From IMG/VR virus record IMGVR_UViG_3300018050_001064, positions 1-43,380 of that record: DNA of 43,380 nucleotides, one strand, 5' to 3'. Shown here piece after piece: positions 5,652 to 33,686 of this stretch (positions are counted from its first letter, which is position 1; the number at the start of each line of letters is the position of its first letter). Position numbers and translations under genes: made by a program. This DNA comes from a virus. Its lineage: Duplodnaviria > Caudoviricetes. The notes beneath the pieces are model-generated. The model had not been told where the DNA came from. It was given only the letters and a program-made list of their open reading frames with translations, and did not search any database.

Positions 5652-6479
5652 TCAATCAACTTTGTTGCCGTCTTTATCCACCAAGTGCTTTCTCGCACCA
5701 AGAAGAACTTTGGCAATGTATGCGTCAGTTTTCTTAAGAGCATTCATACCATCCTTATGCTTTTTTTCGTCAAGACCATCAATCCTTGACTGCTCTGGGT
5801 CGTCAGTATTAACAAAAGCCTTGCTACCTCTTCCAAAAGCACCCTCTGCATAGGACTGATTAAGCCCCTTGTAGAGAACTTCAGCCGATTCGCCGGGGAA
5901 ATCGTCGTTTCTTCCCCTTGGTGCAAAAGCCATCAACGCAGTTGTTACTGCTTCACGGATTTCTGGAGGAGCGTAAGCAATGCTTTCTTGGATATACTCC
6001 TTGGATAGGTGGTTTCTGTCGTCTTGATAGATGTCTGGAATGAGTTTTTTCAGTTCCGCATCACCTTCGTAGTCCAATGTCATATACCACCTTGCATTTG
6101 TCCAATCGTCGTAAGTCAAAGCAGACCTCTTGACATCCTTTTCAAACTTTGAAAACACCTTTGATTCCTTGAGTTTTTCTTGGGCTTCACGCTCTTCTTC
6201 AGCCTTGGCGGCATCTTCGGCTTCCTTGGCTTTGGCTTCCCGTTCAGCCTGCTCTCTTTCGTTGACACTCATACGCTTGCCACGGAAATCCTCATTGGTT
6301 TCCTCCTCCGCCCGCATATAGGCAGACTTCAAAGCATCATCGTAGTCTTTTTGATTAGTTTCGGCTTCCTGCTTTTCAGCCTCATTCTTGATACGGAGTG
6401 CCAATGCTTCACGGCGTAGCCGTTCGGATAATTCAGATTCCGCTGCTCTGCCTCCTCTGGATGGATTTCCTCGTGCCAT
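5652..6479 (-). CDS. MARG-leader family protein (unknown cargo)
   Basis: Begins MARGNPSRGGRAAESE; 275 aa, charged and helical. Confidence 0.8.
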   Translation of the reverse strand: MARGNPSRGGRAAESELSERLRREALALRIKNEAEKQEAETNQKDYDDALKSAYMRAEEETNEDFRGKRMSVNEREQAEREAKAKEAEDAAKAEEEREAQEKLKESKVFSKFEKDVKRSALTYDDWTNARWYMTLDYEGDAELKKLIPDIYQDDRNHLSKEYIQESIAYAPPEIREAVTTALMAFAPRGRNDDFPGESAEVLYKGLNQSYAEGAFGRGSKAFVNTDDPEQSRIDGLDEKKHKDGMNALKKTDAYIAKVLLGARKHLVDKDGNKVD

Positions 6480-6514: not shown

Positions 6515-7063
6515 TTACTTGCGTGGAGGTCGAATCATCAGCATCCCCTGCTCCCCGTTTTTGCTTCGCTCTGGACGCTCATCCAGCACAAACCCGAACT
6601 TGGAATAGAATGCGTGCATCTCCTCCGTGGTTCTCTTCCTTACGCCCGCACGGGTTGGCTGGAAGGGTTCTACCTTCAAGATAATAGGCACACCTCGCTT
6701 GTCCGCCAGAGTCGTCATATCGTTCATAAGGGCTGTGCCAGCCCCCTTGCCAGAAACGCTCTCAATAGTCCGAAGAACCAGCGTGTTGTCGTATGCCGAC
6801 ACCCTTACGGCAAAGGTAGCCTTTGAGCCATCGGGCGTGGTGTAGTCCCTATGCTCGCCGTAGTCTTCTTCTGGTATGCTCGTATTGAGCGTGGAGATTT
6901 TGCGGAGGTCTTTCTCCAGAGCCACAGAGTCCTTCTTCTTGAACGGGGCAATCTTGTCCAGATACTTGTAGTCGGGCATATACGGGTAGTTGGACGGAAA
7001 GGTCTTAATGACCACCTCCGAACGAGCCGCCCTCCCCATACTCATAGGATTCCCTCTTGCCAT
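6515..7063 (-). CDS. MARG-leader family protein with GNAT-like acetyltransferase domain
   Basis: Start re-assigned to ATG 7063 (MARGNPMSMGRAARSE); GKGAGTALM and FYSKFGF match GNAT motifs A and B. Confidence 0.7.
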   Translation of the reverse strand: MARGNPMSMGRAARSEVVIKTFPSNYPYMPDYKYLDKIAPFKKKDSVALEKDLRKISTLNTSIPEEDYGEHRDYTTPDGSKATFAVRVSAYDNTLVLRTIESVSGKGAGTALMNDMTTLADKRGVPIILKVEPFQPTRAGVRKRTTEEMHAFYSKFGFVLDERPERSKNGEQGMLMIRPPRK

Positions 7064-11942: not shown

Positions 11943-12953
11943 TCAACCGATGTAAGGATTCGGCGTATCAAGAGAGGTAGGTGACATCGGCTGGGAATAC
12001 ATCGTGGGGAGCATCTGGCGATGTGCCTGCCTGCGGGTATTCTTGATTTCTTCCAGCAGAGCGTCGAACGAATCGACGATGCCCGTGGTTAACCCACGCT
12101 GTGCCGCCTTGTCTCCGTAGAACGACTGCCCTTGTAGGTCTTCCAGCGATGCGAACTGTCGGACGGAACGGACATCTCGGATAAATCTGCCGTGCAGTTC
12201 ATCGACCTCGTCTTGGAGGGCGTTGATTTGGTCGGGGGTAAGGCTTGTGCCTTCCACGCCTGCCGCCTTGTATTTTCCCGACTTGATGACGACTACTTCA
12301 CGACCTTCCTTCTCGAACTTCTTACGCTCGTCGGTCATTGTGATGTAAACGCCACACGCTCCTACTGAAGCCGAGGGGGTGCAAACAAAGCGTTTGCATT
12401 GTGATGCCATCCAATAAGCCGCCGAACCGCAGTCGGAGTCGGTAAAGGCAATGGTCGGCTTGTCGTATGTGCGGATTTTCTTCGCAAGTTCCTCCAGACC
12501 CGTAGTGCTACCGCCCCCAGAGTCCATATGGAGAACCACCTCGAAGACTGTGTCGTCCTTCATCCAAGCGTCGAGTTGGCTCGCAATCTTGTCGATGTCC
12601 GCACAACCAAGCATCGCCTCAAGGGGAGATAGGCACTTACCAATGACTCCACGCACAGGGATGATGCCCGTGCCATCCTTGACATACGGCATTGATGCCA
12701 CGGCGAGACCAGCAGATGCCGCCATCTTTTCGATGTCCTCATCGTCATCAGCGACGGGGGCGGCACGGAAACGCTTTGCCTTCGGACCGACTTCAGCCTT
12801 CGGCATCGGGTTCATATACGCCGACAAATGGTATGCAATCTCTGGGTTAGAGACGATAAGTTCAGCGTTCTTCAAAAACGCCTGTGCCTTAATAGGGTCA
12901 ATGAGGAGGGGTCGTCCCGCCTTCAAGGCGTAGTGTAAGTCGCTTCTAATCAT
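11943..12953 (-). CDS. Prohead protease, peptidase S49 family (lambda gpC-like)
   Basis: LHMDSGGG, CGSAAYWMAS, SVGACGV and IKSGKYK motifs of SppA/S49. Confidence 0.9.
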   Translation of the reverse strand: MIRSDLHYALKAGRPLLIDPIKAQAFLKNAELIVSNPEIAYHLSAYMNPMPKAEVGPKAKRFRAAPVADDDEDIEKMAASAGLAVASMPYVKDGTGIIPVRGVIGKCLSPLEAMLGCADIDKIASQLDAWMKDDTVFEVVLHMDSGGGSTTGLEELAKKIRTYDKPTIAFTDSDCGSAAYWMASQCKRFVCTPSASVGACGVYITMTDERKKFEKEGREVVVIKSGKYKAAGVEGTSLTPDQINALQDEVDELHGRFIRDVRSVRQFASLEDLQGQSFYGDKAAQRGLTTGIVDSFDALLEEIKNTRRQAHRQMLPTMYSQPMSPTSLDTPNPYIG

Positions 12954-14677
12954 CTGGAGAAAGGTTGCTCTCTGTTACGGGAAAGCCCCGGATTTTGTTT
13001 TGGCAGGGTGTCAACAGAGGTTTCCATCTGCGACGCAGGCTCTGCGGCGGGAGTCTTCGGAGGAGGCGAGAGTTCTGGTTCGCTGTTCGTAAGCGGGTCG
13101 CCAGCCATTTCTTCCGCTTTCTGCCCCACAACTTGGTCGATAGGAACAATCTGCGGTTGTCCATCGGGACCCGGCATAACGATACCCATCGCCCCTTCGG
13201 GAATGGTGTTCGGTTGCTGTTGAGGCTGACCGCCACCACCGCCAGAGGGCGACTTACGCCAAAGTTTGTCTTCTGGGACACCCGTCTCCTTTGACACACG
13301 CTGAATAAATGCGTGGTCACGGGCAATCTTTCGGATGGTCTTCTCAAACCCGTAGCCACGGCTCTGGAAGTCGTCGCTAGGAGGGATACGACCCATATCA
13401 AGGTCGGCACGCTCATTAGCACCCTCACGACCAGCATCAACTGTGACCGACTTACAGCAAACCCACTCCGTCTTCCACCAATTGCGGGCGTTTGGGATTT
13501 CCTTTCGGTCGATTTTAAGACCACACCAGAATTGGAAGTAGTCTTGTAGGAATCGGTTTATGATAATCGTCTGTCTGTGCGAGAAGAAGCGTCCCGCCTT
13601 CGCTACCACGAGGCGAACGGAAGCACCTCCAGCACGAGTCGGGTCTGCAACAAACTCGTATGGCAAGCCCCCCATAACAGAGTCCCTGCGTAGGTGGTCA
13701 ATAAATCCAGCAAAAGCCGCAGACGGACGGGCGGACTGATAAGAAACAAGGCTTTCATTGTTCTGTAAAACGGCGGTCACACCACCAAGCACTCGGTTCA
13801 GAGCGTCGGGGTCGGTATTGGCGGTAGAGGAGTTGCCCTCGCCCAAAGGCTGACCAAGACCAAGGTCACCCGAATCCATTCTGGTGTCTTCCACCTTTAG
13901 GATACGAGAAGTGCGTGAATTGTCCTTAACAGCGACCTTCTCCATCGCCAGCAAGTCCATTTCGTCACGCATATGATTGATAGCGTGCTGATGGGGCGGG
14001 AAGGCTCGGCTCTGGGAGGCGTATTCTGCGTCGAAGATGTGAATCATCGAGGCCGCCTTAATAGGTTCATACTTTCCGTCGCCCTGCTTTACATAATAAA
14101 AGGTCGGCTTTCCGTATTTGTCGAAGCGGATGCCGTCAAAGATGTCGGGGAGCGACATCGCATCGGGCGGGGTCTCCACTCTGTGGGCTTCGATGATTTG
14201 GAACTTCGGGTTGCCCTTCTTATCCTTGCACTTGATGATGAAGATTTCCCCGTCCCTATCCAAGGCTTCGCAAAGGATGTAAAGGGCTTCGAGCATTGAG
14301 AAACGCCCAGACATTTCTGGACGGATGCACTCCTGCTCCCACTCGGCTTCCACCAAGTTCTGCCAATCGTATTCGCCACCCAAGCATTGCAGTCCGATGC
14401 CCTCGCCTATCGAGTAGATGGCGGTGTCTTTAATCATCTGCTTGTAGAGTCCGTTGTTCTTCTCCAGCCAACGGGAAAGGCGAACCATCTCACGACGGGT
14501 CTGCCCCGTCATTTCCATTCGGAAATCGGTCGGCTGGGGTGCGTCGATGCGGGTTCTGTGAACCGAATAGCGTGTGGACTCAAAAGCCCCTTGGTAGGCT
14601 TTCGGCTTCAAGAGGTTAGACAGGCTCATACGAACCCTGTCAAAGACGCTCGGTTTCGGTTGGTTATCGGGTGGCAT
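12950..14677 (-). CDS. Portal protein, lambda family
   Basis: 575 aa; SRWLEKNN, RDGEIF, QIIEAHRV and DGIRFDKYGKP motifs. Confidence 0.9.
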   Translation of the reverse strand: MPPDNQPKPSVFDRVRMSLSNLLKPKAYQGAFESTRYSVHRTRIDAPQPTDFRMEMTGQTRREMVRLSRWLEKNNGLYKQMIKDTAIYSIGEGIGLQCLGGEYDWQNLVEAEWEQECIRPEMSGRFSMLEALYILCEALDRDGEIFIIKCKDKKGNPKFQIIEAHRVETPPDAMSLPDIFDGIRFDKYGKPTFYYVKQGDGKYEPIKAASMIHIFDAEYASQSRAFPPHQHAINHMRDEMDLLAMEKVAVKDNSRTSRILKVEDTRMDSGDLGLGQPLGEGNSSTANTDPDALNRVLGGVTAVLQNNESLVSYQSARPSAAFAGFIDHLRRDSVMGGLPYEFVADPTRAGGASVRLVVAKAGRFFSHRQTIIINRFLQDYFQFWCGLKIDRKEIPNARNWWKTEWVCCKSVTVDAGREGANERADLDMGRIPPSDDFQSRGYGFEKTIRKIARDHAFIQRVSKETGVPEDKLWRKSPSGGGGGQPQQQPNTIPEGAMGIVMPGPDGQPQIVPIDQVVGQKAEEMAGDPLTNSEPELSPPPKTPAAEPASQMETSVDTLPKQNPGLSRNREQPFSR

Positions 14678-14959: not shown

Positions 14960-15412
14960 AAGTGAATGGTCTGCTGGATGACCCCTTGAACCCCATTTGT
15001 TGAGCAACCCGTAGAATGCCCAAACAAGGTGTGCCGTCATCTCTGCTCGGCTACTTTCATCAGCCAGACCAAGTGGTAAAGGAGAACCAGAGCCTTTTGA
15101 AACGGGAGACTCTCGTCTTTGTCCCGCCCCATCTGTCCGCTCTGGCGTCTTAGGCTTGTAGTTGGAGCGTTCCGTCTCCCGCTGTCTCTTCCCCCGCTTT
15201 GGACACGGGGTGATAGCCATTGGCAACCAGCGAGGCTTCTACAAACTTGCATCACCACCCTGCTTACGCAGGACTGTCGGCGGATGAATCACACCGACAG
15301 CAAAGTTAAAGGGCGGTTCTCGAACCCCGCCATACCCTTAAGTGACCTTAAGGTTTTCAGTCGTTAGCCCCGCTACGGAATGGCTCATTTGCCAACCGCC
15401 GACTGCTTCAAG
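14960..15412 (-). ncRNA. Candidate ~450-nt structured RNA
   Basis: No convincing ORF; follows a boxA-like site and a TTGACA; several hairpins (e.g. CCTTAAG-GTCA-CTTAAGG, CCTGC-GTAA-GCAGG); boundaries approximate. Confidence 0.45.
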
Positions 15413-15425
15413 ATGTTTAAAGAAC
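15413..15425 (-). promoter_or_regulatory. boxA-like antitermination element
   Basis: GTTCTTTAAACAT versus rrn boxA GCTCTTTAACA. Confidence 0.55.
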
Positions 15426-15473
15426 TAAAAGTATTCTTACTCTCGTAGGTTGTTTGTCAACTCTATTTTTTAG

Positions 15474-15587
15474 AGTCGCCGTGGAGGAGTCGAACCTCCG
15501 TCCACGAGTCCTTTCAAGAGACGGGGTCTTGCGAACCACGCCACCGCCAATCAAGACGGCTTCCAAGGACAGCACCACGCTACGGCG
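15474..15587 (-). ncRNA. tRNA-like RNA (non-canonical, ~114 nt)
   Basis: CGCCGT/ACGGCG acceptor-like stem; T-arm GGAGG-TTCGACT-CCTCC; GTCCTT/AAGGAC stem encloses a branched domain instead of an anticodon loop. Confidence 0.6.
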
Positions 15588-15595
15588 TAAAGGTT

Positions 15596-16045
15596 TGGTT
15601 GGTGGTGGGATTTGCACCCACAATTTTCGGACCGGGGAGCGACCCCACCTCGGTGACAGCCAAGGTTTGACATCATCCGTGTCTGCGTTGCTGGAGTTAG
15701 TCGGAAGTCATCCCGACCCCCGTGAGTTATTACCCCCACGAGACGCTACACCCTCCATAAAGTATTAGGCATTCCAGCGACCGACATCACTCCCTTGTCT
15801 CCCCCTCGGCTTATTGAGGTTTCTATCCGGGTGCTCTGTGTGAGAGTTGCGGGGCTTTCGCTTGTCCGCTCCTGTCGCCCACCACAAGCCGTCCGTCCTG
15901 CGAAAGGGGCAGGCAATCTTCGGTGCAAGAATACTCCCTGTGTAGACAGGGCTTGTCTGGTTCGCTTACGGCACTTTTCAGATGCCGACGGGTGATAGGT
16001 CGTCCCCTCTTGCGAGGCTGTGCGAGCAGTTTGCGTGGTGTTGGA
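15596..16045 (-). ncRNA. Candidate ~450-nt structured RNA ending in T-loop-like hairpin and CCA
   Basis: Starts after a boxA-like site; ends GTGGG-TGCAAAT-CCCAC-CACCAACCA; many short hairpins with GNRA/UUCG-type loops. Confidence 0.5.
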
Positions 16046-16058
16046 ATGTCAAAAGAAC
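16046..16058 (-). promoter_or_regulatory. boxA-like element
   Basis: GTTCTTTTGACAT. Confidence 0.55.
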
Positions 16059-16067
16059 AGAAAAGGG

Positions 16068-16261
16068 TGCCGCAGGATACCTCTCGGTATCGATATGTTA
16101 GTCGTAGTCGCATTCAACATTGGGTATCCCCAACTTTAGTTTACAGTTAAATCCCTTGCGAGATACAGTCTCCGTCAGTCACCTTACGCCCTTGCAAGAA
16201 CAGTAAGGCTTTTTTTGGAGGTCAGCGAAACCAATGCACTACGCACTAACAGCCGGCGGCA
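16068..16261 (-). ncRNA. Structured RNA, ~194 nt
   Basis: TGCCGC/GCGGCA terminal stem; long stem TGTTAGT-G-CGTAGT-GCATT with AATGC-G-ACTACG-ACTAACA; 3' GATACC-GAGA-GGTATC hairpin. Confidence 0.55.
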
Positions 16262-16290
16262 TAAAAATCTTACCAAGTTTCGTTACGAGC

Positions 16291-16380
16291 CTTACTTCCT
16301 CTCGCCAGCCCCCAGCGGGGCTTGGCGTTGTAGGCGTGCACTAACGCCTCGTTCTTCGACCTTGCGGTCTACAAAGTAAG
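16291..16380 (-). ncRNA. Small multi-hairpin RNA candidate
   Basis: CTTACTT/AAGTAAG closing stem enclosing GACC-GCAA-GGTC, AGGCGT/ACGCCT and a third hairpin. Confidence 0.4.
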
Positions 16381-16382
16381 CA

Positions 16383-16592
16383 GCCCACGGCAGGACTTGA
16401 ACCTGCAACTTGCGAGAGGGTATCCCCTCAAGAGACCACATTGAGTTTTCAGCAGTATCCCGCTTATTCTCACAGTTAAAACCCGTTTAACAGGTTACAG
16501 TTCTCTAAATCCGCACACTCGGTTGCAACCAAAGTGTGTTTCATTTCGAGAGTCAGCGGTGGTCTAACTCGAACCAATCGAGTAGCGTGGGC
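16383..16592 (-). ncRNA. tRNA-like RNA with ~119-nt insert in place of the anticodon loop
   Basis: 7-bp acceptor GCCCACG/CGTGGGC; D-like arm ACTCG-ATTGGTT-CGAGT; AGACCAC/GTGGTCT stem; long variable arm; T-arm GCAGG-TTCAAGT-CCTGC. Confidence 0.65.
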
Positions 16593-16601
16593 GTAACTTA
16601 T

Positions 16602-16667
16602 GACGAGCCAGACATTGGCGACACTCTTATCGCAGAGCGGGCGTGCTGTCGGCGTGTTAGGCTCGTC
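16602..16667 (-). ncRNA. Small hairpin RNA candidate
   Basis: Perfect 8-bp terminal stem GACGAGCC/GGCTCGTC just downstream of a boxA-like site. Confidence 0.35.
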
Positions 16668-16679
16668 TTGAAACTTGGA

Positions 16680-16691
16680 ATGAGAAAGAAC
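16680..16691 (-). promoter_or_regulatory. boxA-like element
   Basis: GTTCTTTCTCAT. Confidence 0.45.
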
Positions 16692-16702
16692 TGAAAGTGA
16701 AC

Positions 16703-16996
16703 CATCATCTCGTATCTTGGCTTCGGGGCTATCCCCCTGTTCGCCTTCGACTCATCGCCCGTGGACTTATCTGCTCGGCACTTGACCGATTTTCCCTCGC
16801 TGGGGATTGCCACTCTCCGTATTCCCTTGGCTCGCTCTGCGTCGGTCAGTCTTGTAGCGGTTGCCCGCATCTGCCGTCCGTAGTGACTCGACTCCCCTGC
16901 CTTTCCCCATCTGGGTCATCGGTCGGGTTACTCGTTCACTTACTCCCAAGGATTACGAAGTCCTCCACTTCGATGGAGGCGACTTACGAGATGATG
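16703..16996 (-). ncRNA. Structured RNA, ~294 nt, closed by a 12-bp stem
   Basis: Perfect inverted repeat CATCATCTCGTA (16703-16714) / TACGAGATGATG (16985-16996), flanked by two boxA-like sites. Confidence 0.55.
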
Positions 16997-17005
16997 TCAA
17001 AGAAC
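16994..17005 (-). promoter_or_regulatory. boxA-like element
   Basis: GTTCTTTGACAT. Confidence 0.6.
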
Positions 17006-17015
17006 TGAAAGAGGA

Positions 17016-17089
17016 GCGATGTGGCTGGTTTGGTTACCAGCCCCCGACCGCAGTCGGGTTGCACAGGTGAGGTCAGTCTCACACACCGC
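17016..17089 (-). ncRNA. 74-nt cloverleaf-shaped RNA lacking tRNA consensus
   Basis: GCGGTGT/ACATCGC stem plus three hairpins (GTGAG/CTCAC, CCCGAC/GTCGGG, GGCTGG/CCAGCC). Confidence 0.45.
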
Positions 17090-17099
17090 ATAAAGTAGA

Positions 17100-17208
17100 G
17101 AGTCGCCCTTGGTCTTTTCGCTCACGCTCGTTGCCGTTGTTAGCCTCGGTCGTGGTTCACAGCCCCTGCTTGTTGCAGAGGACTTAAGGTAGATTTATCG
17201 GGCGACTC
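17100..17208 (-). ncRNA. ~109-nt RNA candidate closed by a 9-bp stem
   Basis: GAGTCGCCC/GGGCGACTC inverted repeat directly after the first boxA-like site. Confidence 0.45.
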
Positions 17209-17233
17209 AAAGAACAGAGGGTAGTTAACCCTG
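17205..17233 (-). promoter_or_regulatory. boxA-like element preceded by a small hairpin
   Basis: AGGGT-TAACT-ACCCT hairpin then GTTCTTTGAG, resembling rrn boxB-boxA order. Confidence 0.45.
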
Positions 17234-17376
17234 ATGAGAGAAGTAGATACTATGCCCAAGGGTTTGACAAGCCAAAAAAACAAAAAAGATTCAGAAACTC
17301 ATAAACCCCCTGTAAACATTGGGTTTTTTGACGAAAATAATTTTGGCTACGACCCCTTTTTAGGGGTATGACCCCC

Positions 17377-19242
17377 TCACTCGGAGGGCATCTTGGGGTC
17401 TGAAGGGGTGGCTGACCCCTCTGGCTGGCTCTCTGCGGGCTTTTCCTCTGGAGGGGGAGGCGGAGGCGGGGCAAGGAAGCCAAACGCCAAGGCGGGCACG
17501 AACTGCATTACTTCGCAGTCCCACAAGTGATTCGCTCGCTTGCCGATGCGTTTCCACTCTGGCTTGCCTGCAAGATTCTTCGTGCGGACTTCGGACTCCA
17601 TCTGGTCGAGGTAGTCCTGTCCTGCGTCAGCGGACAGCGTATGCTTTCCAATCTTACGCATACGGGAGAGTTGGTCTTTCAACGCCAAGTTGGAAAAGTG
17701 GTGAACGCTTACGGGTCCCGTTCCGACATTGACCAACCTACGAGGAGAGTAGACTTTGCCGACGGGCTTTCGTCCCTTCGATGTTTCAATCATCCAAGTG
17801 AACTCGTATCGCTGGTCACCACGCAACGCAGTCCACTTGTTGATACCGCATTGGCGTATAACATCGTCGAATTGGTCACCGCAGTCCACATATGTCAGAG
17901 CGGGGTGCACCTCCAGAGTCTTGCCCATCGCTACGACATCTTCCCAAGTCTGGACATACTTCCACTTCACGAGACGGCTGTCGCCTCCTTCTGCCCAAGA
18001 CCTAACAAGGACGAAGAAGCCTTCTCTCTGCACATCGACTGTCATAAAGCGTGCTCGTATCTGCTTCTCACGCTTGTGGTCGGAATGTATCTTACGGCTC
18101 GCTGGGTCGATGCGGGCTTCCCTGTCCCACTCCTCGCACATCTTGTAGTCGCCGATGTTGGCGAGCGAACCAAAGTCATCGGGTGCGTCCGACCAGAACT
18201 GTGCCAACTGCTTCTGGCGGAAGATTTGCATAGCCTTGCTGTCCCCGTTCAAGTCGAGGGCGAGTTTCGCACGAACATACATCTCCGCCATCACGCCCCA
18301 CGAGCGTGCCGCCAGACCGCTCCAAGTGTAGCCGTGGTTCGCTGGGTCTGCCAGAGGGTTGGTCACGGCATAGAAGCCCGTGGCATTGAAGTCGTCTCGG
18401 TTAGACCTCGTGTCGTCGAACCGCTTCTTGCACCCCTCGCACTCATACTTGGTCTCCTTGCGGATGAGGTTGTAGTCCATCTCGCCGTCGGGCATCTGGG
18501 CATCGGGTATCTTTACCTGTTCCCAATTCCAAGGCTGCCTATGACCGCAGGAGGGACAGCAGAACGACCAGACTCGCTTGTCGGTCGTGTTCCACATAGC
18601 CTCGGTGTCGTCTCCGACGAACGACCCCTGCGACATAAACACACGCTTACCCATCCAGCCGAAGGAGGTCACACGGGCGGAGGCTTCCGCCATATGCCCC
18701 TGCGGCCACAACCAAGTTTCGTCACCGACCAGCCACCTAATCGAACGGCGTTGGAGGTTCTTCTCGTTGAACGCCCCCAAGCACCAGAAGGTCATATCCT
18801 CCGTCTGGACTGTTCCGTTCTTCTTGCCCGTCTCGTCCTTCGCCAACTTCGCTAGGACAGGGGGCACATTCTCCCACAGGATTTTAAGACGGCTCTGCAT
18901 CCAATCGCCCGCATTGTCGTCCGTGTCATTGAGGTAGAGCGTCGGGGCTGGTTGGCGTGCGATAATAAAACACGACAGCATTTCCGCCATCAGCGACTTC
19001 CCAGACTGAATAGGTGCTATCGTCATCGTCATCCGAACCTCTGGGTCGGCACACGCCCGCAGGGGTTCTGCCAGCCACGGGGTCTCCTGCACCCGAAACC
19101 CAGACGGCATCGGGGAGAACGGAATCTGGCGGATGTTCGCCTCCAGCCACGCCACGATGTCTCCGCCCTCGTCGGGTCGGAACACCTTACGGATGCGGGC
19201 TTCGAGTTGGTCGGCAATAGCCTCCTTTTGAGCGGGGGTCAT
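17377..19242 (-). CDS. terL: Terminase large subunit, GpA family
   Basis: TPWLAEPL, APIQSGKS Walker A, LVGDE Walker B, CPSC/CEGC, MTVDVQ nuclease motif, ANHLWDC. Confidence 0.93.
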   Translation of the reverse strand: MTPAQKEAIADQLEARIRKVFRPDEGGDIVAWLEANIRQIPFSPMPSGFRVQETPWLAEPLRACADPEVRMTMTIAPIQSGKSLMAEMLSCFIIARQPAPTLYLNDTDDNAGDWMQSRLKILWENVPPVLAKLAKDETGKKNGTVQTEDMTFWCLGAFNEKNLQRRSIRWLVGDETWLWPQGHMAEASARVTSFGWMGKRVFMSQGSFVGDDTEAMWNTTDKRVWSFCCPSCGHRQPWNWEQVKIPDAQMPDGEMDYNLIRKETKYECEGCKKRFDDTRSNRDDFNATGFYAVTNPLADPANHGYTWSGLAARSWGVMAEMYVRAKLALDLNGDSKAMQIFRQKQLAQFWSDAPDDFGSLANIGDYKMCEEWDREARIDPASRKIHSDHKREKQIRARFMTVDVQREGFFVLVRSWAEGGDSRLVKWKYVQTWEDVVAMGKTLEVHPALTYVDCGDQFDDVIRQCGINKWTALRGDQRYEFTWMIETSKGRKPVGKVYSPRRLVNVGTGPVSVHHFSNLALKDQLSRMRKIGKHTLSADAGQDYLDQMESEVRTKNLAGKPEWKRIGKRANHLWDCEVMQFVPALAFGFLAPPPPPPPEEKPAESQPEGSATPSDPKMPSE

Positions 19243-31450: not shown

Positions 31451-32332
31451 TTAGTCAACCAGATTGTTCAGTCCAGACTTCGGGTCGATGCGTGTAACCT
31501 TAAAGCCAGAACCAGACTTGGACTGACCTTCCTTGTATGGACGACCAGCAGGTCCAATTGCTTTCGCAATCTGCTCTATCTTGTAACTGCCAACCTTCGC
31601 ACCCTCTGCGATGCTTTCAGCCTGCCACGCTGAACTTGAGATGATTTCAGCCGTCTGCTTAACGCCATTCTTGCGACCAATGTCGCTACCAGCGGTGGCG
31701 GCGGCAAGTTGGAGACCACGGGGAGATGCGTCAAAAGTTCCAATAACACGGAGAGATTGAGTGCCATTGGGTGTATTGTTCTCAATTAGGTCGCCACGGA
31801 AGATGCCAACTGTGCCTTGCGGGTCGTTGGTATCCCAAGTGTGCGGGATGGCGTAAAGTTTCTTGTTTGCATCCAAGGCAAAAATGAAGCCGTTTTCCTT
31901 GTTAGCGTCTCTATTTCCACGCTCAAAAGCATCGCTCGCTTCTTCTGACCTTGTAGACTTTGTTCCAGAGCGGTCAAACCCGCCCTTTTGACGATACTCG
32001 TAGTCAATCTTCTTTCCGTCAACTGTGCTTTCCATCAAGTTCAACTTGCCAACCTTCTTTAGGTGGTCGGATTCGGCAATGTCGATTTTGTATGACTCTC
32101 TGTCTGGGCGGAAATCGGTCAGTTCTTTGACGGCTCGGTTGTTCGCCAGATACAACTTCATAGCGGTCAACGCCTTGTCCTCGTCAAACTTGGAATTGTC
32201 GGCTTCGGCTTTAAATGTCTCCAACAGGTCTACCGCCCTGTTAATGCGAGCCTGTGCAGTTTCAGCACGAAAGACTGTGCCCGCCTCGGAGCGTGCCGAA
32301 CGACCTTCGCTTGCTCGATTACCTCTTGCCAT
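31451..32332 (-). CDS. MARG-leader family protein
   Basis: Begins MARGNRASEGRSARSE. Confidence 0.8.
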   Translation of the reverse strand: MARGNRASEGRSARSEAGTVFRAETAQARINRAVDLLETFKAEADNSKFDEDKALTAMKLYLANNRAVKELTDFRPDRESYKIDIAESDHLKKVGKLNLMESTVDGKKIDYEYRQKGGFDRSGTKSTRSEEASDAFERGNRDANKENGFIFALDANKKLYAIPHTWDTNDPQGTVGIFRGDLIENNTPNGTQSLRVIGTFDASPRGLQLAAATAGSDIGRKNGVKQTAEIISSSAWQAESIAEGAKVGSYKIEQIAKAIGPAGRPYKEGQSKSGSGFKVTRIDPKSGLNNLVD

Positions 32333-33221: not shown

Positions 33222-33686
33222 TCACCCCAGCATATCACGAATGTCCCGATTGGTCTGGTAGTCCACCGCCTCAATTGCTCGCTTGATGATGTCCATATAC
33301 TCCTTGGCTTCTCTGCCAGACGGACCACGACCCTCCTTAATCCACTTTGTGCCCATCGACTCAAGGGCATCTATGGCATCCATAACATACGGGCTGTCGG
33401 GCACTTCGCCGTTCATTGCACCCGCAAACTTGCTACGCTCCTTGTAGGCTTCCTTAATGTGGAAGATGGCGTTGTCTCTGGCTTCACGCTCTTCGCCCTT
33501 GGGGTCGGTGTATTGGTAAGAGGCGTTGTTTTGGGCAATGCCACGGAAGTCCCTGCTGATGGTGTCTTCGTTCACATTGCGTCCGCCCTGTGAGGCACGC
33601 TCACGGGAGGTAAAGTCTGAAGAGCCATATTGGTTGGCTTCGGAACGAGCCGCTCGCCCCTCGGATGATTTGTTGCCTCGTGCCAT
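33222..33686 (-). CDS. MARG-leader family protein
   Basis: Begins MARGNKSSEGRAARSE. Confidence 0.8.
   Translation of the reverse strand: MARGNKSSEGRAARSEANQYGSSDFTSRERASQGGRNVNEDTISRDFRGIAQNNASYQYTDPKGEEREARDNAIFHIKEAYKERSKFAGAMNGEVPDSPYVMDAIDALESMGTKWIKEGRGPSGREAKEYMDIIKRAIEAVDYQTNRDIRDMLG

Follow-up and report, generated by a model that had tools for sequence, protein, structure and literature searches.

Phage tRNA regions have long been known for unexplained extra RNAs, such as T4 species I and II, GOLLD and ROOL. The T4 species I and II RNAs have tRNA-like ends and are not known to have a defined function. According to PMC2330249 they are non-tRNA RNAs released from the precursor of a phage tRNA cluster. 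GOLLD, ROOL, manA and EGFOA are structured, phage-borne RNAs found near tRNA genes, for which assembly through kissing loops is possible, and ROOL has been reported as highly abundant. Transfer-messenger RNA (tmRNA, RF00023) carries a large domain in the anticodon position of a tRNA-like body, and group I introns are inserted in the anticodon arm of bacterial and phage tRNAs. The allo-tRNAs and irregular tRNA polycistrons of Mukai et al. (PMC5389517) have a tRNA-Sec-like body in which both the D stem and the variable arm are long; irregular tRNAs were seen as arrays in metatranscriptomes and are, in the same account, probably unused in translation. In the engineered tRNA scaffolds of Ponchon and Dardel (PMC3753655) the acceptor, D and T arms are kept and the anticodon stem-loop serves as insertion site, and the cargo is described as being processed and protected by the cellular machinery.

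The locus described here lies in the window, as we call the whole 43,380-base viral record that was analysed, and comprises two RNAs, RNA1 and RNA2, which share one module and belong to a larger non-coding array (Table 1). Like the engineered scaffolds, RNA1 keeps the three arms and has its insertion in the anticodon stem-loop; however, it is natural, at least three cargo classes occur on its chassis and the same cargo also stands on a non-tRNA stem, the module being a natural counterpart of the laboratory trick. It shares the general plan of tmRNA, but it has a 6-bp D stem, a long variable arm, a C3-G70 pair (not G3:U70) in the window copy, no encoded CCA and a cargo of 88-123 nt, and the tmRNA model of Rfam gave no match over RNA1 or RNA2. 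Allo-tRNAs, as PMC5389517 describes them, keep the anticodon loop and have an 8/4 or 9/3 branch or one extra loop, whereas RNA1 combines a 7/5 branch with a cargo of about 90-120 nt; compared with tRNA-Sec and allo-tRNAs, it has the long D stem and variable arm and none of the 8/5, 8/4 or 9/3 branches. Unlike group I introns, the insert matches no intron model, and its removal leaves no ordinary tRNA. The module RNAs are much smaller than GOLLD and ROOL, show no sequence or Rfam model match to GOLLD, ROOL, manA or EGFOA, and reverse an arrangement: GOLLD and ROOL embed a tRNA in a large RNA, whereas here the tRNA embeds the module. The array recalls the T4 RNAs as a source of non-tRNA RNAs in a phage tRNA cluster, but nothing similar beyond T-arm matches was found among GenBank phages.

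A comparison with Y RNA and YrlA gave only a 14.6-bit match (gathering score 69) spanning two adjacent genes, and no TROVE protein was present among 108 proteins scanned from partial genomes. No published description of the module RNA was found in the literature. It may be one of the 10,006 viral RNA candidates of Fremin et al. 2023 (PMC10690425), listed there without a name, but the contig identifiers and two motifs were absent from four supplements of that paper. Among the RNAs of phage tRNA regions, the module represents a new fold and a new modular architecture, with a putative function.

The phage and its non-coding array

The window represents a tailed phage whose genes, all encoded on the minus strand, include those for tape measure, major head, protease, portal, terminase, primase and recombination proteins. 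The runs in which the array region occurs came from freshwater, river and wastewater samples. The array occupies about 2.3 kb from the gene for the large terminase subunit (terL) to a small gene preceding the portal gene; it has no PHROG-matched gene, U-rich spacers separate its elements, and promoter-like sites are predicted at 15460 (consensus scan) and at about 17270 (by eye). Rfam returned zero matches over the window at gathering scores and, at E up to 10, just chance matches and a weak similarity of T arms to tmRNA; over 14 relative loci it returned ordinary tRNAs only. ARAGORN with default settings called one doubtful tRNA in the window and left RNA1 uncalled, which was called in a relaxed run with an artificial intron.

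Identity of terL to GenBank phages was at most 23% among the 20 listed of 214 records, the best E-value among the phages listed being that of Verrucomicrobia phage P8625, and one Phycisphaerae bin contained two terL matches (26-27% identity). For the RtcB protein of a relative, the first organism named belonged to Verrucomicrobiota (52%), followed mostly by Bacteroidota. The module matched 0 of 151 Planctomycetota genomes, a count of little weight because the search had no positive control and the host may belong elsewhere. The promoter-like stretch at 17240-17294 recurs inverted, several kb upstream of terL, in four relatives (L004:411-465, L006:86-134, L008 and L010:454-507). An N-terminal motif, MARG(Y/N), was seen on unrelated proteins, four in the window, 22 in G004, one in G005 and none in six other records, and is possibly a capsid-targeting signal for internal proteins.

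Table 1. Coordinates of the array, its RNAs and associated genes, given as window positions or, where a locus is named, as positions in that relative.
Feature	Position	Strand	Basis or remark
Terminase large subunit (terL)	17377..19242	-	phrog_15, E 3e-52; upstream of array
Portal protein	12950..14677	-	phrog_21, E 7e-35; downstream of array
Whole non-coding array	14969..17270	-	from terL to small gene preceding portal
RNA1	16383..16592	-	tRNA chassis + 119-nt cargo; fold; 16 distinct homologous genes
RNA1 long variable arm, hairpin with GAUA loop	16416..16429	-	fold and gene comparison
RNA1 cargo	16440..16558	-	core module + optional GGAUAC-capped side domain (hairpin loop 16455-16461)
Core module copy 1 (RNA1)	16472..16558	-	alignment, covariation; covariance model 106.7 bits (training sequence)
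UUGCAA loop copy 1	16523..16528	-	invariant, arm tip
RNA2	16068..16261	-	194 nt, paired ends; fold; 11 distinct stretches
Core module copy 2 (RNA2)	16143..16227	-	covariance model 90.1 bits (training sequence)
UUGCAA loop copy 2	16192..16197	-	invariant
Separate predicted structured RNA, RNA1-RNA2 interval	16269..16380	-	fold; similar stretches in L003, L006, L008, L018
tRNA-derived RNA, hairpins added in D region	15601..15756	-	fold; array member
Relatives of the 15601-15756 family	L005:3610-3763, L009:9119-9344, L010:9457-9599, L012:4166-4328		
tRNA-like RNA, 3' end resembling tmRNA tRNA-like domain	15477..15586	-	tmRNA 16.9 bits vs gathering 47
RNA1-type chassis, shorter cargo	L008:9156-9285, L010:8837-8966, L015:9238-9367, L006:8626-8759, L018:9134-9262		
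RNA1-type chassis, third cargo, same array slot	L005:3344-3499		
RtcB/HD_4-like/PAPS-reductase/ParB loci	L130:2651-3868, L130:6621-7136, L119:3478-4035, L119:1736-2821		
Window MARG(Y/N) proteins	5652-6479, 6515-7063, 31451-32332, 33222-33686		

A conserved module on two scaffolds

The module is a conserved, scaffold-portable fold, present on two scaffolds and as exchangeable cargo on one tRNA chassis, in an order that is shuffled between phages. RNA1 had been read in the initial annotation as a near-complete tRNA cloverleaf with 119 nt in place of the anticodon loop, and folding confirmed it. The acceptor has 7 bp (16586-16592 with 16383-16389; 6-7 bp in all 16 homologous genes), the D stem 6 bp (16567-16583; 6-7 bp across the genes) and the anticodon stem 7 bp (16559-16565 with 16433-16439), enclosing exactly the cargo, and the T arm (16390-16406) has a 5-bp stem in the window copy. 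Across the same genes the variable region measures 26-49 nt, and the cargo varies in length, with extra domains on its 3' side. A GGAUAC hairpin is constant in the variable arm and optional next to the core, five short variants (L010, L015, L020, L055 and L057) having it solely in the variable arm. RNA2 is built from a 6-bp closing stem and an interrupted stem of about 22 bp that bears the module; a D arm is absent, and a 3' GNRA hairpin (16076-16091) occupies the position of the T arm. Its own GGAUAC hairpin, at 16124-16130, is optional and is missing from two variants (L008 and L010).

The shared unit measures 85-87 nt and folds as a three-way junction. It begins with CRCUG and an arm of fixed length that bears the palindromic loop UUGCAA at its tip; CUGUA, a hairpin and UUUAACYG follow. 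CRCUG pairs with CYGY to form P1. Beyond it come the four pairs of P2, an internal loop that is A-rich and has 7-8 nt per side, and P3, which is capped by UUGCAA. The strand (A/C)CUGUA joins this arm to the P4 hairpin, and the junction is closed by UUUAA. In copy 1 these parts are CGCUG with CUGU (P1), 16548-16551 with 16502-16505 (P2), ACUGUA (16496-16501), P4 at 16481-16495 and UUUAA, and in copy 2 P4 is capped by GCAA and the internal loop has A7 opposite GACUGAC. UUGCAA is its own reverse complement and was invariant in 23/23 copies, a count to be read with the fact that the collecting pattern demanded this loop; the looser pattern and the covariance model gave no array copy without it. 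In all 23 copies the arm keeps its length to within 3 nt: CRCTG and the loop are 24-27 nt apart, and the return from the loop to CTGTA takes 22-24 nt. The P4 loop and the internal loop vary together between RNA1-type and RNA2-type copies, a pattern that a contact between the two would fit.

L087 and L148 were rejected as module copies, both lying inside protein genes, and L087 was for this reason left out of the alignment, in which 23 of the 24 distinct candidates gathered were placed, unfitted. Paired cells amounted to 93.0% of 431, as opposed to 30-49% in slid controls, and double-change cells to 81, as opposed to 29 +/- 5 in shuffles (0/500 as high). Both sides had changed at 10 of the 19 pairs, P2 and P4 were 100% paired, and pair 17-67 was present as six pair types; on the two measures based on numbers of pairs and of pair types, the alignment was not better than shuffled ones (85/500 and 92/500). 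RNAalifold recovered P2, the P3 tip and P4, and did not predict P1, in which two of three pairs never vary. Because the copies form two related subfamilies, these counts represent non-independent events, and the covariation support for the fold is good, short of a formal significance test. The least credence of all is given to the suggestion that these are non-functional relics of duplicated or decaying RNA genes: presence is patchy and the clade narrow, but compensatory changes, invariant junction bases and an arm length conserved across phages with 72-100% identical terL speak against it, and the covariation has largely refuted it.

An ordered motif claimed for 16438-16501 and 16117-16169 does stand there and had no occurrence in 200 dinucleotide shuffles of the window, a generous control because the two copies had themselves supplied the pattern. 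Greater likeness of the copies than of shuffled sequence held with lenient scoring (85 vs 51 +/- 5; 0/2000) and was borderline with strict scoring (96/2000 as high). The initial annotation was right about two shared copies; it placed the start of the module about 57 nt too far downstream and missed the 5' half (CGCTGA and the TTGCAA-tipped arm), and the GGGATAC hairpin and CAATGT, which it took as shared core, fall outside the core, the hairpin being dispensed with in the RNA2 variants named above. Its broader proposal of a conserved functional module on stable scaffolds is supported by the covariation in 23 copies, two unrelated scaffolds, swappable cargo and the failed splice test described below. 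A guide-like role disagrees with the position of the variation, which sits in paired stems, unpaired conserved stretches being only 5-7 nt long, and a catalytic role found no support here. A guide RNA was rejected as a candidate for its part, the module having no long unpaired variable stretch. Neither copy of the core matched the Rfam ribozyme and riboswitch families at E up to 10. Resemblances to the SAM-II and c-di-AMP riboswitches, the hatchet and twister-sister ribozymes and the 5' stem of Y RNAs were dropped without an Rfam match, as was the idea that UUGCAA resembles the anticodon loop of tRNA-Cys shortened by one base.

A terL search gave 19 related viral loci (66-100% identity) and a portal search 29. 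An exact scan for the motif of the initial annotation detected eight viral stretches, each accompanied by a relative of terL or of portal, and a looser pattern detected 17 viral and 43 metagenome stretches, clade members being mixed with chance matches. The covariance model, run over 58 of 116 loci after duplicates and some chance matches were left out, yielded 35 full matches at 78-107 bits, one cut by the contig end and, after these, nothing above 16 bits; the extra pattern matches from the viral and metagenome scans scored at most 16.7 bits. No distant member was obtained from the model, because its matches were training copies or near-identical sequences. When the tip loop was dropped from the pattern, five more stretches appeared, all at chance-level score, and no module was found outside the clade in the viral and metagenome pattern scans. 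The module was present in 12 of the 19 terL loci and absent from the array in six, one locus being cut short; it is dispensable. In whole-record searches of eight relatives it was found solely in the array (4/8 records). The order RNA1-RNA2 occurs in the window, L003 and L063, the order RNA2-RNA1 in L010, L015, L057, L078 and L082, and a single module copy in L004, L008, L009, L012, L013 and L020.

A pattern for the D and T arms recovered 21 distinct chassis genes, 13 with the module, eight with two other cargoes (seven with a shorter cargo and encoded CCA, one with a third cargo) and none with a plain loop. In the shorter cargo the anticodon arm is lengthened, and AGUA faces GAA in what looks by eye like a loop E; a branched variable arm accompanies it. 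A search of viral sequences for the 3' part of the chassis returned nine stretches, eight of them in module-bearing contigs and the ninth in unrelated AT-rich DNA without the 5' half of the cloverleaf. The array slot of RNA1 holds, in L006:8445-8518 and L008:8452-8525, an ordinary-sized tRNA of another build, its anticodon loop being unusual in having G at position 33. A small bounded domain thus stands on two scaffolds and one chassis takes different cargoes; chassis and function are therefore separable, and testable as such.

Likely retention, possible expression and possible function of the module

Were the cargo a small intron, its removal would give a working tRNA; it does occupy the anticodon arm, every gene has a possible cut that follows a U and precedes a terminal G, and RtcB is present in one relative. 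However, no cut yields U33 in any of the 16 distinct RNA1 genes, so removal of the cargo leaves the loop of a working tRNA (7 nt, U33, a purine at 37) in 0/16, and cuts of the U/G (group I) type fall at differing places between genes. An insert of this length cannot accommodate the P3-P7 and P4-P6 core of a group I intron. The group I model gave no match at E up to 10, the covarying fold being a single three-way junction, and no intron family matched save for one chance-level hit elsewhere in the array. The variable cargo length with its added 3' domains, the presence of the module in a non-tRNA (RNA2) and the failure to find an intron-less allele among the 21 chassis genes and in the viral 3'-chassis scan also argue against an intron. 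A joint skipping the insert was absent in eight RNA runs, five of which covered RNA1, a test weakened by possible DNA carry-over and by the loss of short tRNAs, a short spliced tRNA being able to escape the libraries; both insert junctions were crossed by contigs of X1 (16341-16687), X2 (16405-16637) and X9, and the 3' junction by contigs of X5 and X7. An intron is very unlikely, and the module is likely retained unspliced in the phage RNAs.

All eight runs consist of contigs, which give no strand, ends or level and may derive in part from DNA, and the depths below are to be read accordingly. The river metatranscriptome X5 had contigs at 16391-16570 and 16071-16246, wholly within RNA1 and RNA2, with depths of 308 and 88, its other two contigs having 3.9 and 4.6. 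In X7, also a river metatranscriptome, contigs at 16397-16555 and 16161-16241 had depths of 342 and 86, and the capsid-region contigs listed 2-13. X8 contained RNA2 only (15.5), X1 and X2 were flat (2-22), X9 was one 10-kb contig, and X12 and X15 had next to nothing at RNA1 or RNA2. These depths are a weak hint that RNA1 and RNA2 are discrete, abundant RNAs, weak because the contigs lack strand, ends and level and X5 and X7, which contain close relatives of the phage and not the phage itself, may stem from one campaign. A third contig of X7, at about 15170-15279 (array stretch 14969-15239), had a depth of 83. The deepest contig of X7 runs into adapter at 16555, where the U of the P1 mismatch lies; X5 does not show this end.

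Very probably the module is a display domain, of whatever kind, that is functional and retained. Our leading reading, to which we assign a probability of roughly 0.45, is that on its two scaffolds, likely unspliced in stable RNAs, it would act in the infected cell as an abundant decoy binding a host protein or RNA-protein machine. Binding, perhaps of a protein, would be the simplest mode of action because the RNA is non-coding, unspliced and apparently plentiful and has an invariant exposed loop on a measured arm; a macromolecular partner was ranked first because of this arm, the tRNA-derived neighbours, the RtcB and HD-domain genes of the clade and the known conflict over tRNA (PMC10264068, PMC11464382), in which phage tRNAs are described as countering tRNA-cutting defences (PMC11555353). 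The array would be transcribed as one precursor from the predicted host-type promoter, from which RNA1 would be freed by host RNase P and 3' trimming via its acceptor and T arms, as engineered tRNA scaffolds are, its cargo staying in place and being presented, and RNA2 would be shielded by its paired ends. The invariant junction bases and a contact of P4 with the internal loop would produce a compact fold. In this fold UUGCAA would be kept at a constant distance and could meet a partner or pair with the same loop of a second copy, the module possibly dimerising through UUGCAA. In the least certain step, the partner would be a host factor opposing the phage via tRNA or translation.

Genes for RtcB (E 4.5e-75), for HD_4-like proteins and for a PAPS-reductase/ParB pair are present in relatives. 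HD_4 scored 27.4 bits in the module-bearing G004 and below the cut-off in G003, the RtcB-bearing phage, which is without the module. Ro60, synthetases and other RNA-binding families were absent among the 108 proteins scanned from partial genomes, and a gene-content comparison of nine partial genomes singled out no partner gene; co-occurrence is uninformative because the module-negative contigs mostly lack the early region. Rather doubtful, at about the weight of a minority opinion, is a broader proposal in which a natural, shuffled library of RNA effectors would be mounted on the tRNA chassis and the module would be a sponge that neutralises a host immune protein or signal nucleotide, the whole forming an anti-defence system of displayed RNA aptamers alone. 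Should a defence factor or signal prove to be bound, the module would represent RNA counter-defence of a new type, and if it self-assembles, a compact building block would be gained; either way, the whole array had been missed by tRNA finders and Rfam.

RNA-only self-assembly, with UUGCAA loops kissing between copies and A-rich loops packing into dimers, rings or cages in the manner of GOLLD, ROOL and manA RNAs, is compatible with a binding decoy and, taken by itself, unlikely. The self-complementary loop is invariant and held at a fixed distance, and some phages make do with only one of RNA1 and RNA2, which would be compatible with a homo-oligomer. Contacts through kissing loops and A-minor interactions are reported for the ROOL and GOLLD phage cages (10.1101/2024.12.08.627333), and cages for RNAs of <200 nt (10.64898/2026.07.01.735769). 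However, one self-complementary loop gives a dimer only, covariation cannot appear in an invariant loop, and the Rfam models of GOLLD, ROOL, manA and EGFOA do not match.

In riboswitch aptamers the invariant bases cluster at junctions and the stems vary, and the same distribution is seen at the three-way junction of the module. An aptamer soaking up a small molecule, for instance an immune or stress nucleotide, would as a sponge require a high copy number, with which the depth hint agrees; it is nevertheless quite improbable, as no riboswitch family matched at E up to 10 in the two regions tested and the long arm and exposed loop point to a large partner. Self-cleaving ribozymes are known from phage tRNA arrays, the conservation of the module is centred on its junction, and one deep RNA contig, that of X7, stops in adapter within P1. 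A new class of small ribozyme, self-cutting or aiding the processing of the array, is still very improbable, since the deep X5 contig passes 16555 and reaches 16570, the equivalent site of RNA2 is crossed by RNA2 contigs and no Rfam ribozyme family matches.

The phi29 pRNA is a multimerising three-way-junction RNA. The present array lies between terL and portal wherever both were seen in relatives, so that a service in head assembly or DNA packaging similar to that RNA (named in PMC12990946), or carriage in the virion, was also weighed. Only a slim chance is left to it, as relatives L005-L007, with terL 88% identical, are without the module, and the array position says little because ordinary tRNA genes fill the same region.

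Other structured RNAs of the array

The tRNA-derived RNA at 15601-15756 belongs to a family with an expanded D region (at least two added hairpins and varied arms), several members of which encode CCA. The RNA of about 110 nt at 15477-15586 is conserved in L005:4064-4182, L008, L009, L023 and L055, with no tag frame and no G3:U70; it is a possible decoy of SmpB or the ribosome. An RNA of about 294 nt with a 12-bp closing stem lies at 16703-16996 on the minus strand; it has no Rfam match, and similar stretches are present in L012, L013, L019 and L023. Further structured RNAs occur downstream of the second promoter-like site, at 14969-15239 on the minus strand, a stretch that includes a 116-codon ORF conserved at its 3' end only.
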